Below are positions 32,265 through 50,663 of a stretch of 54,675 bases of DNA, in pieces; the first letter of the stretch is position 1; each line of letters begins with the position of its first letter. The stretch lies in the IMG/VR virus record IMGVR_UViG_3300030333_004255, positions 1-54,675 of that record; one strand, given 5' to 3'. The notes beneath the pieces were generated by a model. It saw only the letters and a list, made by a program, of their open reading frames with translations, searched no databases and had not been told where the DNA came from. The translations under genes were made by a program, and so were the position numbers. Source of the DNA: a virus (Duplodnaviria; Caudoviricetes).

Positions 32265-32638
32265 TTACCCGCCCTTGGTTTCTTGTAGTTAATGCTTTCA
32301 ACCGCCTGGTGTAGCAGTAGACCAAACACTTGGATTGATTTGTGCTCCATGTCAGCCTCGGAGAAGAAGTTGATTGCTTCCACAATCTCGTGCCAGAAAG
32401 TCTCCCAGGCTAAAGTGTTATTCATATTAGTATTGATAGCGATCACCAGATTAGACGGGTCAAAGTAGCCGTAACAATCGTCCAGGTTTTCTCTAACCAC
32501 CTCGATGGTGTGGCCAGCGATGGTCACTTCAACAGGCAGCTTTTTGGACCGGCTCTTCTTTTTCTTAGAGCTGTTAGGTTTAGGGGGTATGCTCTTGTAG
32601 TATATTTTCATCTGATTAACTCCCCTTCTAAGATACAA
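32261..32638 (-). CDS. Small zincin-like protein (HExxE variant)
   Basis: CYGYFD...IAIN...TFWHEIVEA. Confidence 0.65.
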   Translation of the reverse strand: MYLRRGVNQMKIYYKSIPPKPNSSKKKKSRSKKLPVEVTIAGHTIEVVRENLDDCYGYFDPSNLVIAINTNMNNTLAWETFWHEIVEAINFFSEADMEHKSIQVFGLLLHQAVESINYKKPRAGK

Positions 32639-33348
32639 CTCTTGTTAACTATTGGTATTGATTGAAGAATAGGTGTGCCGTCCTTGTGGATATACCCCAC
32701 ACCAAAGCCCGTCACCCACTCAGCAGCCATGGACGCTTGGTTGGCGTAGTCGATTTGACTTATATCCCCCAGCCACCCAAACATCGCAGCGGTTAGAAGC
32801 TGACCCTGGACATTGTTCCTGGTAATCGTCGCGCACCTATGTGTGTGCCCGATGATGACAGACGAACCTAGCTTGGCTGCCGCAGTCCGGTGAGCACTTT
32901 GCCCTGATGACCCATAGTCATGAGATACAACTAGATTACCTAACTTCAATTGTTTTCTATATGGAATGTACTCCCAGTTATTTTCAGACAGTTCAAATAG
33001 CTTATCTGTTTCCACCATGCCGAATAGCTCAGGTGCTTTCGACATTACATACCGCTCTAGTCGGTACTCATGGTTACCAGATAGATAGATTTTGCGTGGT
33101 ACGTCTAAACGCTCAATCCTGGCCAGGCACTTGCGTACGGCCTTTACTTCATCTTGAAGTAGAGCCACCCGATTGGGTGATTTGTCGTGAGAGCTGACAG
33201 AGTAGAAGTCAGCAAAGTCGCCAAGGATAACGAGAACATCAGGCTGGAATCGGTCAATGGCTTTTAGTGCAATCTTGAATGCAGATTGGTCATGATACGG
33301 TACGTGTGTATCAGGGATGAAGAAAACTTTCTTTACTCCCCGAATCAT
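32608..33348 (-). CDS. Calcineurin-like metallophosphoesterase
   Basis: DTH, GDFAD, GNHE, SH and GHTH motifs. Confidence 0.93.
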   Translation of the reverse strand: MIRGVKKVFFIPDTHVPYHDQSAFKIALKAIDRFQPDVLVILGDFADFYSVSSHDKSPNRVALLQDEVKAVRKCLARIERLDVPRKIYLSGNHEYRLERYVMSKAPELFGMVETDKLFELSENNWEYIPYRKQLKLGNLVVSHDYGSSGQSAHRTAAAKLGSSVIIGHTHRCATITRNNVQGQLLTAAMFGWLGDISQIDYANQASMAAEWVTGFGVGYIHKDGTPILQSIPIVNKSCILEGELIR

Positions 33349-33971: not shown

Positions 33972-34217
33972 TCACCATGTGACCCTCACCCCGGTTAATG
34001 CTTCCCATTGCTTATTAGTATTAGCGCCAGCAGAGGCAAATAGAGAAACCGAGTCGCTAACTCGATGATCAAGACGAGCATCAATCCTACCGACATCATT
34101 ATTAATACCGGCAATAAGATTAAACGCTCCCGAACCTTGGCCCATCTTTTCGATCCCCTGTAACGCCGCATTAACTCGTTCTTCTATTCCTCCGTCGATG
34201 ACGGCTCCTGCTTTTTT
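33972..34217 (-). CDS. YadA-anchor-like beta-barrel module (-1 frameshift extension of the holin-like gene, or a 57-aa ORF from ATG 34145)
   Basis: My translation: KKAGAVIDGGIEERVNAALQGIEKMGQGSGAFNLIAGINNDVGRIDARLDHRVSDSVSLFASAGANTNKQWEALTGVRVTW*. It fills the holin-endolysin gap. Confidence 0.7.
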   Translation of the reverse strand, partial: KKAGAVIDGGIEERVNAALQGIEKMGQGSGAFNLIAGINNDVGRIDARLDHRVSDSVSLFASAGANTNKQWEALTGVRVTW

Positions 34218-34432
34218 ACAAGCTCTTTAGCTGCTCCAATCTGAGCAACTCCCTGCACCTCTTTACCCTTCACCATTGAACGGCCAGCAGCGTAAGAGCT
34301 GCCGCACACTGCGGAAAGAATACCACCAGCAATAGTGGTCCACTGGTTCTCGCCAACACTGGCCAGGATAAGACCGCCAACCATTCCTACTAAGTTCAAC
34401 CAGAATTCAGTTGATTTAAATCCGCTCTTCAC
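34184..34432 (-). CDS. Holin-like membrane protein
   Basis: KSGFKSTEFW N-terminus and two hydrophobic segments, upstream of the endolysin. Confidence 0.7.
   Translation of the reverse strand: MKSGFKSTEFWLNLVGMVGGLILASVGENQWTTIAGGILSAVCGSSYAAGRSMVKGKEVQGVAQIGAAKELVKKQEPSSTEE
34211..34217 (-). promoter_or_regulatory. Predicted -1 ribosomal frameshift site A_AAA_AAG
   Basis: GTA AAA AAG in frame; hairpin CCGTC-ATC-GACGG 6 nt downstream. Confidence 0.65.
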
Positions 34433-34712
34433 GACGTGCCTCCCTTAATGCTTCTTCCCTAGCAGTCTGTTTAGTCCAGTTGATTCTTACCTCTTCCCTG
34501 AACTCACAGAACTCCCGATGAAAATCGGATGTCTTGTCTGTTAAATTTTCAACGTTGTCTTGAAGTTCTTTTACTTGCAGTTCAAGTAAACTAATACGAG
34601 TATAAACGGTCCCGCCATTCTTCTTGGCCATCTGCTTCTCGACCAATTTTATCAGAGCCATTACGACTCCAACCAGGGCTGCGGTGCCCGCAGGTTGTGT
34701 AAGCTCTTCCAT
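34416..34712 (-). CDS. Single-TM coiled-coil lysis-region protein
   Basis: AALVGVVMALI followed by heptad repeats. Confidence 0.65.
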   Translation of the reverse strand: MEELTQPAGTAALVGVVMALIKLVEKQMAKKNGGTVYTRISLLELQVKELQDNVENLTDKTSDFHREFCEFREEVRINWTKQTAREEALREARREERI

Positions 34713-47054: not shown

Positions 47055-50005
47055 TATCTAACCCCACTAGGTTTCCCCCGTAGCGGGGTACCACTCCTTA
47101 CCATAGAGTTCCACTCTTGCTCGCGTGTAAGTTTTCTCATGAAGTCTTTAGTGTCCGCCACTTGGACAACCATACTTTGAATTACCACTCCACCCGCAAC
47201 CCCTCCACGAGGGATAACCTGCTCACCAGGAGAAAGCATAGCTGGTACAGAGTCCCCGAAACCAACACCCGGTACTACACCACCGTGCTGGAAGTGGATT
47301 AATTCACCTTGAGGGCCAACCCTGGTTGTCCTGCCAGTCCCCATGGTGTCTCTAATAACTTGTATAGTATCACTCAACGCAGCTTGGAATGCGCGAAGGT
47401 TTGCCTTGAACCCAGCTGGGATATTACCCGACTTCTTTAACTCTTCGTTTAAGTTCTTGAATTCTTCTCTGGTGTCCCTTGTCTCTTCACCAAGCTTGTC
47501 CATCTCATCGATAGCGTCAAAGACTGCATTCGGGTCCATCCGTTGTAAATCTACAACGCCGAAAGTAATAGCATCTAAAGCGTCCGCTAAAGCGTTGTAT
47601 ACTTTAGCAATAGCCCAAACGATCCCACCTATTACATAACCAATCCCTTTGAAGACAAGCATCAAAGCTTTTGTAGCTAGCTCAAATACTTTTAGGACAG
47701 GGGTAAGTGCTTTTATAGTTACACCTATTATAAAGAACAGCGCACCAAAGGCTTTCAAAGGACTCAAAAATACATCCAGTACACCCACCAAACTTTCAAA
47801 TATGGTATTTAGACCTATACTTAAAACTTTGAATGATTGAGTCGAGGTAGCCATTTGAAGAAGCCCCGCAACTGCCCCCATCATAGGGTTACCAGTAGCG
47901 GCGGTTACTTGAGCAAATGTTGATACAGTACTACCAAACTCTCCCATAGACCCCATGGCCGTGTCAATCATCCCACCTATAGCGGAAATCTCAGGGACGT
48001 TTAAACCTTGGATTTCATCTAAAACAGCAGATCCCGCAGACTCAAATAAAACAGTAGCGGTGTTTATCATAGGGTTAGCTAGTGCAGCTTCAATCTTTTT
48101 GTTTTGGCGAGTGCCTCCGTAGTACCTAAAAGAGAGGGGTCCGCGCTCATCTGCCCCCACTCCCCCACCTGTAGTAAACTCATTCAACATGAACTTAAAA
48201 GAGTTGACACCTCTTTGAAAAATTTCACCGTACTGTCTTATTGTGCTCTGTAATTCTACAGCTGCCCCATTAAAATATTGTTCTAGAGCAGACATTACAT
48301 TTCGAGCAGCCTCTTCACCTCGTTTTTCCAGAAGCTCCTCGTTCTTTAACCCTGTTAGAATACTGTTGAAAGCTACACGTGCCGTTTGCTCTAAGTTAAA
48401 ATTATCTACTGCGGATGCGCCTATAGCCAAAGCTACTTTGAACTTCTCATTAATTTTACCAATACCTTCAGTTAGGATATTGTCTATATCTAAAAGCTCG
48501 TTTTGTTTCTTCAACTCTAGAGCACGAGCCCTTGCTAAAGCTAACTCGTCGTCTGAAGAACCGTCAGGGTTTCTAGCAAGAAGGGGAGGCACCCCTGGTT
48601 GATCTCTGTACAGCAAAGATTCAGCTTTACGTGCAGCAGCTTTCCTAGCCTTCGCCGCCCTGCTTTCCCGCTCCTGGCTGTACATTTCTCCAGCTTCGAC
48701 GCCATAGATACCACCTAAGGCCATACCCCCCAAAGCACCAAAGAAAGTCCCCGCTGGCCCAAGCATACTCCCAGCCATACCACCGGCAGCACCTCCAGCA
48801 ATAAGACCGGATAACCCCATTCCATCCCCAAAGAAAAAATCACTCATCTTATCAAAGGGGAGACCTTTAATTGCTAAAGCTAAGTCATTAAACTTTGTAA
48901 CTAAAAAAGTCAGAGGACCTAAAAGAGATTCACCTATGTTCTCTCCTAGGGTTTTAACTATATTACTCATCCTATCGAGCTGCTTATTTAGCGAATCTCG
49001 AATAGTATCTGACTGTTGCTGGATTGCCCCATCTGCACTATCTAGTGTACGTAGAAACTCTTTAAAGTCTCCAGTACTTCTTGTTAGGGCTGTTACTGCT
49101 CTAGCTGAGTTACGGTTAAAAATTGTAAAAGAGTCACCAGCTGTCATATTAGCGTCAGCTAACTGCTGCAATATTACCCGAAGGGGTAACATTTTATTCT
49201 CTGTTTCATGGGTAACTATACCCATCTCAATTAATTTTCGTTTAGCTTTGTCAGTAGGGTTGGATAAATCCATCAACATTGCTTGAAGGGCACGCCCCGC
49301 CAAACCAGCTTCAAGACCTGTTTCACCTAATAATGATAAAGCCGTAACGACTTCATTCATTTCAATTCCAGATGCCTGAGCAATAGCACCTGTAAACTTA
49401 AACCCTTCACCTAGACCAGCGATGGATACGTTGGCATTAGCTGCGGCTTTAGCTAATACATCAGAAACAGCTTCTAAATCTTTAAGCTCTAATCCGTATG
49501 ACTTTAAAACCCGGATAGATAAGTTAGCTGCCTCTGATACAGATATACCACTAGCGGTAGCCAGGTTGGCTACGTGCTTTAATGCTTCACCTACTTCACC
49601 GGCTTGAAAACCTGCACGACCTAAAACGGTTGAGGCTTTTAACAGGGCTACAGATGTATGCTCCGTAGCTGTTGAAACAGCCTGTACAGATTCTTTTAGA
49701 TTTTGAAAGTCTGCGGCAGACCCGGATGTAATTGCCTGAACTTCACGAAAACGTTCTTCAAACTCAGCAGCTGTACCTGCTAAAACCTGAATACTTTTAC
49801 GTAATACGTCCAAGCCTTTTAAAACAGGGGATACTTGAAAGGCTTGGAATGTTTTACCTAAAGCTCCAAGGGGGCCACCCTGCCCAGATAATTTTTGGAG
49901 AGAGCCGAATCTTTTTTCGACCCGAGCCATTGTTTTCTGAAACTGAGAATCGTCCCCAGTAATGACCGCGTTTAACTCAGCTATTCTTGCTTTGCTTGAT
50001 GCCAT
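47054..50005 (-). CDS. Tape measure protein (TP901-like core)
   Basis: 983 aa, Ala/Gly/Leu-rich, AGRALQAML, C-terminal GGVV...DSVPAMLSPGE. Confidence 0.95.
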   Translation of the reverse strand: MASSKARIAELNAVITGDDSQFQKTMARVEKRFGSLQKLSGQGGPLGALGKTFQAFQVSPVLKGLDVLRKSIQVLAGTAAEFEERFREVQAITSGSAADFQNLKESVQAVSTATEHTSVALLKASTVLGRAGFQAGEVGEALKHVANLATASGISVSEAANLSIRVLKSYGLELKDLEAVSDVLAKAAANANVSIAGLGEGFKFTGAIAQASGIEMNEVVTALSLLGETGLEAGLAGRALQAMLMDLSNPTDKAKRKLIEMGIVTHETENKMLPLRVILQQLADANMTAGDSFTIFNRNSARAVTALTRSTGDFKEFLRTLDSADGAIQQQSDTIRDSLNKQLDRMSNIVKTLGENIGESLLGPLTFLVTKFNDLALAIKGLPFDKMSDFFFGDGMGLSGLIAGGAAGGMAGSMLGPAGTFFGALGGMALGGIYGVEAGEMYSQERESRAAKARKAAARKAESLLYRDQPGVPPLLARNPDGSSDDELALARARALELKKQNELLDIDNILTEGIGKINEKFKVALAIGASAVDNFNLEQTARVAFNSILTGLKNEELLEKRGEEAARNVMSALEQYFNGAAVELQSTIRQYGEIFQRGVNSFKFMLNEFTTGGGVGADERGPLSFRYYGGTRQNKKIEAALANPMINTATVLFESAGSAVLDEIQGLNVPEISAIGGMIDTAMGSMGEFGSTVSTFAQVTAATGNPMMGAVAGLLQMATSTQSFKVLSIGLNTIFESLVGVLDVFLSPLKAFGALFFIIGVTIKALTPVLKVFELATKALMLVFKGIGYVIGGIVWAIAKVYNALADALDAITFGVVDLQRMDPNAVFDAIDEMDKLGEETRDTREEFKNLNEELKKSGNIPAGFKANLRAFQAALSDTIQVIRDTMGTGRTTRVGPQGELIHFQHGGVVPGVGFGDSVPAMLSPGEQVIPRGGVAGGVVIQSMVVQVADTKDFMRKLTREQEWNSMVRSGTPLRGKPSGVR

Positions 50006-50663
50006 TCTTTACCAGGCCCTTTTTCCCAGAAAGCGTCCTGCTCTCTCTTTTCTATTTCTTCATCAATCTGATCTAAAACAGATCTCGTTGATTTTATCTT
50101 CTGCTTCTTACCTCGTAACTTACTAGGTGTGACACGGGTACCCTTCTTCACATGAGGTTGAACACATACTGCGGCATGCCAAGCTAACATATCCATTTGG
50201 ATATCTAACTTGTCGTTATACCCTTGGGCATAGTACATGAACTCATACAGTGTGAGTTCCCAGAACTCCGCAGGTTTTAAGCCTAACTTACCTGCTAATG
50301 TTAGGAGTTCTCCCCATCTGACTTTCCCTCGTCTTCATCCTCATCCATGTAAGACTGGATCCCTGGAATCGACGAAGCGATAGCAGTGAATACCGAAGTC
50401 ATTAGGTCTCCTAATTCACCTTCGTAATCATCTAACCATCTTCCTACTTTGGCAGGTGTTAGTTTTTTGTTCTCGTACAAAAGACCTACAAATATTGCGT
50501 CTCGGAGAAGTCTCAGACCTACAGAATCTTGGGCCATCAAAGTGACAATACCTTTCCCTGATAGATCTTCTAACTTGGCAATCTCATTAGTTCGATAACG
50601 AACTGTTCGGAGCTTACCCCCAATGTTAATGCTAGCCTCTCCACGTGCTGGATTCGCGCTCAT
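49981..50663 (-). CDS. Tail assembly chaperone G (50301..50663) and -1 frameshift product GT
   Basis: G_GGA_AAG at 50328-50322; the -1 frame reads VRWGELLTLAGKLGLKPAEFWELTLYEF into ORF 49981..50238. Confidence 0.88.

Follow-up and report, generated by a model that had tools for sequence, protein, structure and literature searches.

The window analysed here, a stretch of 54,675 bp that is the complete record of a marine siphovirus (IMG/VR record IMGVR_UViG_3300030333_004255), carries a lysis cassette in which a gene for a holin-like protein with two transmembrane (TM) segments holds the slippery heptamer A_AAA_AAG close to its end, where a -1 frame encoding a conserved beta-strand module (the extension) opens. 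The best explanation overall, which we favour with some reserve, is that this one lysis gene is decoded in two ways, by standard translation into a short form and by a programmed -1 frameshift into a long form, and has a third gene inside it. A preliminary description of the locus had proposed the frameshift and had seen in its product a fusion of the holin-like protein to a YadA-type outer-membrane anchor, hence a candidate lysis or spanin system. The putative embedded gene is new here and goes beyond the claims of that description.

A slippery heptamer at the end of a holin-like gene

The open reading frame (ORF) of the two-TM protein ends with CTT GTA AAA AAG CAG GAG CCG TCA TCG ACG GAG GAA TAG, the heptamer lying eight codons short of the stop. 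In the -1 frame, a TAA at 34229-34227 (three codons upstream) precedes a run that stays open until the TGA at 33974-33972, i.e., 81 codons counted from the heptamer. The end of the 82-aa ORF, the phase of the heptamer at 34217-34211, the stop just upstream in the -1 frame and the 79 open codons after the two lysine codons, all put forward in the preliminary description, were verified in the sequence. The long form would comprise residues 1-74 of the short form and the 79-residue extension, 153 aa in all.

A chance scan covered all stop-to-stop ORFs of at least 80 codons in the window (24,329 codons in total). It found 88 in-phase heptamers, ten of which are followed by at least 40 open -1 codons; only two of these ten fall within 10 codons of the 0-frame stop. 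One is the lysis site. The other (G_GGA_AAG, 50328-50322, minus strand) is the classical tail-assembly-chaperone frameshift: it lies in phase six codons before the stop of a 120-aa ORF (50301..50663), and its -1 frame stays open for 115 codons up to the tape-measure gene, with a second ORF at 49981..50238. That the scan yields one known recoding site together with the lysis-gene site argues that the latter is more than chance.

The arrangement is conserved among relatives. A first set of DNA loci, drawn from viral and metagenome contigs, gave 15 informative sequences (the window and 14 loci). In all 15 an in-phase heptamer stands where the -1 frame opens; it is A_AAA_AAG in 14 and G_GGA_AAG in L003, the most distant locus of this set (38% identity). 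The third base of the codon before the heptamer core (GTA, GCA or CTG) is silent for the two-TM protein, yet it is always compatible with a heptamer. For a larger set, viral contigs were scanned with an alignment of the two-TM protein and all forward ORFs of the resulting 65 loci were searched with a hidden Markov model (HMM) of the extension; 33 loci carry the extension, 29 lack it and three are too short to judge (nine of the 33 are contigs already present in the first set). The extension lies in the -1 frame relative to the two-TM ORF at 33 of these 33 loci, and a perfect in-phase heptamer is found within the overlap at 32 (20 A_AAA_AAG, 11 G_GGA_AAG and one A_AAA_AAA), L065 being the sole locus with an imperfect one, C_AAA_AAG. 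None of the 33 loci fuses the two-TM gene and the extension in frame, and a search with the two-TM protein as query, a weak test, turned up no longer fused protein.

Since G_GGA_AAG is unable to slip during transcription, the event would be ribosomal. An indel in the A6 run of the window, a source of error that the preliminary description had anticipated, was not found: contigs from four runs and four studies span the run intact (these are contigs, not raw reads, and are blind to rare A7 variants or transcript slippage). The occurrence of the same arrangement in dozens of diverged, independent assemblies likewise speaks against an assembly error in the run. Site, frame and protein family are conserved in these computed comparisons; that ribosomes slip there, and at what rate, we infer from them. 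With the -1 frame kept throughout, heptamers of three kinds and several extensions that lack a start codon (see below), a real programmed -1 frameshift at the lysis gene appears very probable, in agreement with the central claim of the preliminary description.

The hairpin noted in that description (CCGTC-ATC-GACGG, 6 nt past the heptamer) is present. It is kept in L004-L006, with a U-A pair changed to U-G and one extra C-G pair; another group of relatives has a different stem 5 nt past the heptamer. The structure is a possible stimulator of slipping; this role, as opposed to its presence, was not borne out by the folding and covariation analyses reported below. The frameshift of the lambda G/GT tail chaperones operates without a stimulator.

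The dnaX frameshift uses A_AAA_AAG and lambda G/GT uses G_GGA_AAG. The lysis-gene site resembles both systems in its heptamers and their phase, in its proximity to the 0-frame stop, in the N-terminus shared by the two products and in its conservation. Unlike them, it lies in a lysis gene, the added part is a predicted membrane beta-module and no strong stimulator was found. Full-text searches of the literature, judged by their listings, gave no account of frameshifting in a holin or lysis gene, nor of a spanin built as a beta-barrel; as far as we found, a conserved programmed frameshift would here be seen in a lysis gene for the first time.

Searches of deposited sequences set the limits of this sample. 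Neither blastn nor tblastn matched the region, the extension or the two-TM protein to any of 50,697 deposited phage genomes, and no prophage copy was found in GTDB genomes. Locus scans with P0014 and P0013 gave no match in viral contigs, nor did P0014 in genome contigs. A tRNA scan found none, hence no clue to the host. Two matches were discarded: L011, a false match inside a long ORF, and L019, where the second genome scan hit by chance a helicase-like ORF of 1180 aa in a Pseudomonadota metagenome-assembled genome.

The extension, its partner and the embedded reading frame

Differences at codon positions 1, 2 and 3 of the -1 frame number 83, 24 and 204 within the window's group, a distribution that marks it as the coding frame. 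A word-indexed search gave six clusters of extension homologues (82-100% identity), and phmmer against 1.84 billion representatives gave nine matches. Eight of these are ORFs of 48-87 aa with differing called N-termini, none of the eight having a long hydrophobic N-terminus fit for a signal peptide. The ninth match, to a repeat protein, is spurious. Gene callers split the locus into the 82-aa ORF and an arbitrary ORF of 48-87 aa (products of 57 and 67 aa among them) and miss both the fusion and the embedded gene.

Start codons were surveyed in 31 distinct extensions from 35 loci, taking the first ATG, GTG or TTG after the heptamer. This start leaves at most 8 residues in five extensions (L034, L038, L039, L060, L063), 24 in L043 and 48 in L035; in these 7 of 31, no start codon is usable ahead of the strands. 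In the remaining ones the position of the first start varies, from codon 9 to codon 24 after the heptamer. The window's only extension start, ATG 34145, is preceded by AGGGGA, as the preliminary description had cautioned; initiation there would remove the helix that the model described below places with confidence. Judged from these sequences, the extension is a conserved protein part that is not able to be its own gene.

The fold of the extension was modelled with AlphaFold2 from a 19-row alignment, using the 84-aa stop-to-stop ORF (predicted local distance difference test score, pLDDT, 88.3; predicted template-modelling score, pTM, 0.73). In the model, numbered along this ORF, a helix at residues 14-26 is followed by four strands (33-42, 45-55, 60-69, 74-82), the same elements that had been predicted from the sequence in the preliminary description. 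When the model was compared with 350,542 PDB chains by Foldseek, ranks 1-5, with E values between 3e-4 and 7e-3, went to Hia (3emo, 2gr7, 2gr8), AtaA (9vnj) and YadA (2lme); unrelated proteins begin at E = 0.02. VIA-align, which is independent of Foldseek, also had Hia at the top (Z = 6.5) and gave 6.1 for AtaA and 5.4 for YadA, all middling scores. In BFVD, the 16 best matches consist of seven unnamed proteins and nine phage proteins that bear the name YadA-like anchor, YadA-like protein or agglutinating adhesin.

Features of the sequence are consistent with this computed resemblance. Hydrophobic and polar residues alternate along the strands; in strand 2, as read from the sequence, R-D-R-D-R forms one face and I-A-L-H-V the other. 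The C-terminus conforms to G-Φ-(K/R/Q)-Φ-x-W/F in 31 of 31 extensions, with G at -5 and hydrophobic residues (Φ) at -4 and -2. An end of the form G-Φ-x-Φ-x-W/F is the beta-signal of outer-membrane proteins. If the extension has the fold of a trimeric-autotransporter anchor, three copies would build a 12-strand barrel; a complex prediction with three copies (alignment A3; score 0.25, mark 0.42) is neutral on the trimer. We consider it likely, from model and sequence, that the extension is a transmembrane barrel module of the trimeric-autotransporter-anchor type. The YadA-type anchor of the preliminary description thus holds as to predicted fold and beta-signal and fails as to family: the extension resembles the anchor in its modelled fold, but it is not a PF03895 member by HMM, and it has no PHROG family match.

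Like the anchors of YadA, Hia and AtaA (PF03895), the extension combines a helix with a four-strand meander and a terminal aromatic beta-signal. Unlike them, it lacks an HMM match, a Sec signal peptide and a head or stalk passenger domain, its helix is of 13 residues, and its N-terminal partner is a predicted two-TM inner-membrane hairpin joined by a frameshift. The anchor fold of trimeric autotransporters would thereby be extended to a protein without a signal peptide. Phage YadA-like anchors are treated as virulence-type auxiliary genes, not lysis genes, in a passage of PMC10654107.

The partner itself has a regular order: TM-a, an acidic loop of 3-8 residues, a TM-b rich in G, A and S, a basic flank and a conserved charged tail (GRSxVKGKEAxGAAQVxAAxELxKK). 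Mean Kyte-Doolittle hydropathy in a 17-residue window (KD17) is 1.9-2.5 for TM-a and 1.26-1.45, which is weak, for TM-b. The tail is helical up to the slip site in an AlphaFold2 model whose low pLDDT (59.8) restricts its use to this remark. In 12 of 12 homologues the N-terminal flank carries a charge of +1/+2, the loop -1/-2 and the C-terminal flank +2/+4; both ends are predicted to be inside in all twelve (N-in/C-in), in accord with a caveat of the preliminary description, which had foreseen a cytoplasmic tail. Pfam Phage_holin_10 is matched below threshold (20.7 vs 27 bits) in 2 of the 12, there is no PHROG match, and the neighbours in the ESM Atlas are viral hypothetical proteins of 76-78 aa, Phage_holin_1 being only a 0.80 lead. 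The protein is called holin-like for its shape and for its position beside the endolysin gene.

A second coding sequence appears to run through the same DNA. The 0 frame re-opens after the two-TM stop in 14 of 14 sequences examined, and in 26 loci the open run measures 58-65 codons in 23 and 41 codons in three. When synonymous codons were resampled with the extension protein and codon usage held fixed, open runs of this length had P = 0.007-0.059 per locus; combined over 14 lineage representatives, hand-picked by the author, P was 7e-7 for the 0 frame versus 0.77 for the third frame. In 26 of 26 loci the opening stop is followed within 5 codons by a start codon, as is the case for only 128 of 445 (29%) comparably long open runs of the window. 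Divergence at 4-fold sites, computed over 13 pairs, is 99/374 = 0.27 in the extension, versus values of 206/376 = 0.55 and 300/602 = 0.50 for the two-TM and lysin genes, respectively. The product would begin with a basic segment of about 16 aa and continue into a strongly hydrophobic TM, whose hydrophobic peak exceeds expectation (P <= 0.05) in 8 of 12 loci. These computed signs of selection suggest that the embedded ORF is probably a real gene. As its start lies just past the two-TM stop, ribosomes that have not slipped could reinitiate there. Read-through of the two-TM stop was considered and rejected, as in relatives the two-TM ORF is separated from the 0-frame ORF by two or three stops. 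Also rejected was the embedded ORF as a lipoprotein spanin: the window copy has no cysteine, and a lipobox-like pattern occurs in only 2 of 33 loci. The embedded ORFs of a few lineages (L036/L037; L029) do show a lipobox-like motif, e.g., GLMAC or GLTAC, probably by chance.

Lysis context, proposed mechanism and competing explanations

The gene directly past the extension encodes a peptidoglycan hydrolase of one of three unrelated kinds: the phrog_3000/33083 type of the window, Peptidase_M15_3 (L013, L030, L035, L051) or Amidase_2 (L038, L043, L060). Six of ten tested downstream ORFs had a Pfam match of Peptidase_M15_3 or Amidase_2 type, and the downstream ORF of L034 looks by eye like the window's lysin. 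At the 29 loci without the extension, the two-TM homologue is short and stops just past TM-b. An ORF with a lipobox starts between -80 and +700 nt of the two-TM stop in 17 of these 29 loci versus 2 of the 33 with the extension (Fisher P = 7e-6), both of the latter being the embedded ORF itself. The lipoprotein ORFs of extension-less loci are mostly of 72-109 aa; a PHROG scan of ten of them gave no family, and we describe them as spanin-like by their features and position only. In L056 (1474-2019), an overlapped pair, a 68-aa protein with an N-terminal TM and an 84-aa lipoprotein, comes straight after the 69-aa two-TM gene. Short (about 55-70 aa), tail-less two-TM homologues with a small lipoprotein gene next to them were seen in L056, L052, L058, L061, L066-L068, L070, L072, L073, L077 and L081. 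As a candidate lysis or spanin system, the locus is thus upheld in its computed context (three endolysin families, complementary lipoprotein distribution); the function itself we infer.

The following mechanism could account for these features. Most ribosomes would read the two-TM gene to its TAG and produce the 82-aa inner-membrane hairpin; some would slip by -1 on A_AAA_AAG, at Lys73-Lys74, and produce the 153-aa long form. Because the join is predicted to lie on the cytoplasmic side and the module lacks a signal peptide of its own, we propose that the long form idles as a minor subunit of holin assemblies, and that the barrel module would gain the periplasm when the holin lesion opens. It would then insert in the outer membrane, possibly as a trimer, and tether or perforate it as the last step of lysis. 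In relatives without the extension, the outer-membrane step would be carried out by lipoprotein spanins. The embedded protein, probably made by reinitiating ribosomes that did not slip, may be a partner or a regulator. The frameshift join is kept in every lineage even though a signal peptide would be simpler, a hint that being tied to the holin-like protein matters in its own right; if the module is deployed via the holin lesion, its attack on the outer membrane would be coupled to triggering.

That the long form acts on the outer membrane in lysis is, in our estimate, close to an even bet, if slightly short of it. More tentatively, and with doubt prevailing, the locus may represent a third kind of phage device for disrupting the outer membrane, namely a frameshift-made trimeric barrel, carried by the holin and released by its lesion, together with a partner encoded by the embedded gene.

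Several points weigh against this mechanism. We know of no precedent for a beta-barrel that reaches the outer membrane via a holin lesion, and the predicted N-in/C-in topology means that the tail and the barrel module start in the cytoplasm. On the side of the fold, the Pfam YadA_anchor model matched neither the window's extension (E up to 1) nor 19 family members (E up to 10), the search that the preliminary description had suggested; a profile search of PDB sequences with the extension gave nothing relevant; and VIA-align scores (below 8 for the anchors) are alike for CdiB (6.3), the C5b8 complex (6.0) and the gasdermin B pore (5.8). As for the frameshift, the predicted folding of the 68 nt from the heptamer onward does not surpass that of shuffled sequences (z = 0.10), and the stems of the two groups of relatives show wobble changes only, with no double compensatory change or covariation; slipping efficiency could be low. 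The extension-less loci are more distant homologues (29-48% identity), and for this reason the complementary distribution of lipoprotein genes, while suggestive, may reflect kinship. A diderm host is assumed, since nothing matched among deposited phages or GTDB genomes. Finally, the sole convincing lipobox ORF of the window genome (19557..19823, plus strand; 88 aa, LSSC), which lies in the early region and overlaps the end of a 325-aa phrog_1221 gene, is possibly an outer-membrane spanin subunit or an exclusion protein.

The predicted cytoplasmic tail (12 of 12 homologues) and the lack of a signal peptide on the barrel module would also suit a long form that stays where it is made. The frameshift would then be real and its product an antiholin or timing subunit on the cytoplasmic side, supplied at a fixed ratio, with a beta-module that oligomerises or blocks the hole. 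Holin/antiholin pairs at a fixed ratio, such as lambda S107/S105 with their dual start, are established lysis logic and favour this explanation. As with S105/S107, one lysis gene would give two membrane proteins at a ratio fixed by translation; unlike lambda, where alternative initiation adds two N-terminal residues, the frameshift here would add a C-terminal domain of 79 residues. A cytoplasmic subunit would have no need for the hydrophobic outward faces of the strands (assigned from the sequence and the strand limits of the model), nor for the insertion signal of outer-membrane proteins, ending in W or F, that 31 of 31 extensions keep. The best fold matches are membrane barrels, and the extension takes the position of the lipoprotein genes. 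We therefore regard the antiholin function as unlikely, albeit worth keeping in mind.

The marginal hydrophobicity of TM-b (KD17 figures above) leaves room for a different topology. If the N-terminal part were an export signal or anchor, with TM-a a signal anchor or cleaved and TM-b periplasmic, the long form would be a Sec-exported mini trimeric autotransporter or a one-molecule bridge. The order signal, short segment, helix and four strands is that of trimeric autotransporters, and the helical tail could serve as a stalk. Three K/R residues just past TM-b and none in the loop point instead to a hairpin; the short homologues finish past TM-b with a basic tail, like small holins, and have spanin-like genes next to them; and export alone would require no frameshift. 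Such a protein strikes us as improbable.

Since the module begins on the cytoplasmic side, and the VIA-align scores of gasdermin B, the C5b8 complex and the RCD-1 pore (5.2) fall in the same range as those of the anchors, one could also imagine that the four strands form a multi-subunit, gasdermin-like beta-pore which enters the inner membrane from the cytoplasm as part of the holin lesion. At E <= 0.01, however, Foldseek lists autotransporter anchors only, strands of 9-11 residues are short for the inner membrane, and the conserved C-terminal G-Φ-x-Φ-x-W/F is an outer-membrane assembly signal; we give such a pore very little credence. That there is no frameshift, the extension being a separate gene read from ATG 34145 (57 aa, with a good AGGGGA Shine-Dalgarno sequence) or from a non-canonical codon, or else part of one continuous ORF that a sequencing error in the A6 run has split, matches the 57- and 67-aa calls of gene finders and is scarcely credible given the 7 of 31 extensions with no start that leaves four strands, the loss of the confidently modelled helix from 34145, the persistence of heptamer (of three types) and frame at 32-33 of the 33 loci, none of them fused in frame, and contigs of four studies without an indel in the A run.

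The holin-borne outer-membrane module that we favour shares several traits with spanins, both two-component (Rz/Rz1, the embedded architecture included) and unimolecular (T1 gp11). It occupies a lysis-cassette position by holin and endolysin genes, of its parts one is fit for the outer and another for the inner membrane, and it includes a gene embedded in another frame. Unlike spanins, it has no lipobox, and its predicted outer-membrane part is a barrel module without export signal, covalently attached to a holin-like protein, with a start predicted to be cytoplasmic. In its layout, the embedded 58-aa ORF is reminiscent of spanin pairs of the embedded type, which Kongari et al. 2018 list for 182 of 677 phages (PMC6139136, Table 1). 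In the same paper, 91 of the 677 phages (13%), many of them marine, had no identifiable spanin, and it is suggested that 'an OMP could act as an o-spanin', OMP standing for outer-membrane protein (PMC6139136). If the proposed mechanism is true, the locus would be such a protein, which Kongari et al. 2018 only conjectured (PMC6139136), and would derive three proteins from about 460 nt. Spanin-less phages of Gram-negative hosts amount to roughly one in eight, and the locus offers a clonable candidate for the opening of the outer membrane in them. It is also a case of dense overlapping coding, with two frames apparently under selection plus recoding, and it provides three genetic handles: silencing of the slip site, fusion of the frames and removal of the embedded start.

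Gene order and neighbouring features

Genes for the large terminase, major head protein, tape measure, DNA polymerase and primase are all present in the window. The lysis cassette is compact, runs on the minus strand and is situated downstream of the tail-fibre genes (Table 1); the gap of 221 nt between the two-TM gene and the endolysin-like gene is the space in which the extension and the embedded ORF lie. A Pfam search with the 196-aa endolysin-like protein gave no match.

Table 1. Positions of the features of the lysis cassette in the window.
Feature	Position	Strand	Description
98-aa gene	34416..34712	-	Acidic N-terminus, one A/G-rich TM, basic flank, long coiled coil; overlaps the start of the two-TM gene by 17 nt
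Two-TM holin-like gene, short form, 82 aa	34184..34432	-	GTG start, GGGAGG 7 nt upstream
Slippery heptamer A_AAA_AAG	34211..34217	-	X_XXY_YYZ phase; codons GTA AAA AAG, residues V72 K73 K74
Hairpin CCGTC-ATC-GACGG	34192..34204	-	Starts 6 nt past the heptamer; CCGTC 34204-34200, GACGG 34196-34192; possible stimulator
Extension, -1 frame	33972..34217	-	KK + 79 codons + TGA; G-rich linker, predicted helix IEERVNAALQGIE, four predicted amphipathic strands, end GVRVTW
Embedded ORF, 58 aa	33995..34171	-	0 frame of the two-TM gene (+1 relative to the extension); ATG 4 codons past the two-TM stop
Endolysin-like gene, 196 aa	33372..33962	-	ATG 10 nt past the extension stop; phrog_3000 E = 2.6e-35; phrog_33083 'endolysin' E = 8.3e-14

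The 98-aa gene that precedes the two-TM gene has weak family matches only (phrog_1009, E = 0.0014). Counterparts are found upstream of the two-TM gene in L009 (95 aa), L003 (107 aa) and L013 (138 aa). Its flanking charges, read off the sequence by eye, suggest an N-out/C-in topology, unlike that of an inner-membrane spanin subunit. This protein could itself be the true holin, or else a regulator.

A metallophosphoesterase gene (phrog_221, Pfam Metallophos) lies 3′ of the endolysin gene both in the window (32608-33348, minus strand) and in L009 (2913-3659), an unusual neighbour for a lysis cassette. On the other side, the tail-fibre genes upstream of the cassette in L013 (23-1798) and L003 (194-2248) share a conserved C-terminal segment (...GLDFINALRPV...), which may be akin to the self-cleaving chaperone domains of tail spikes.

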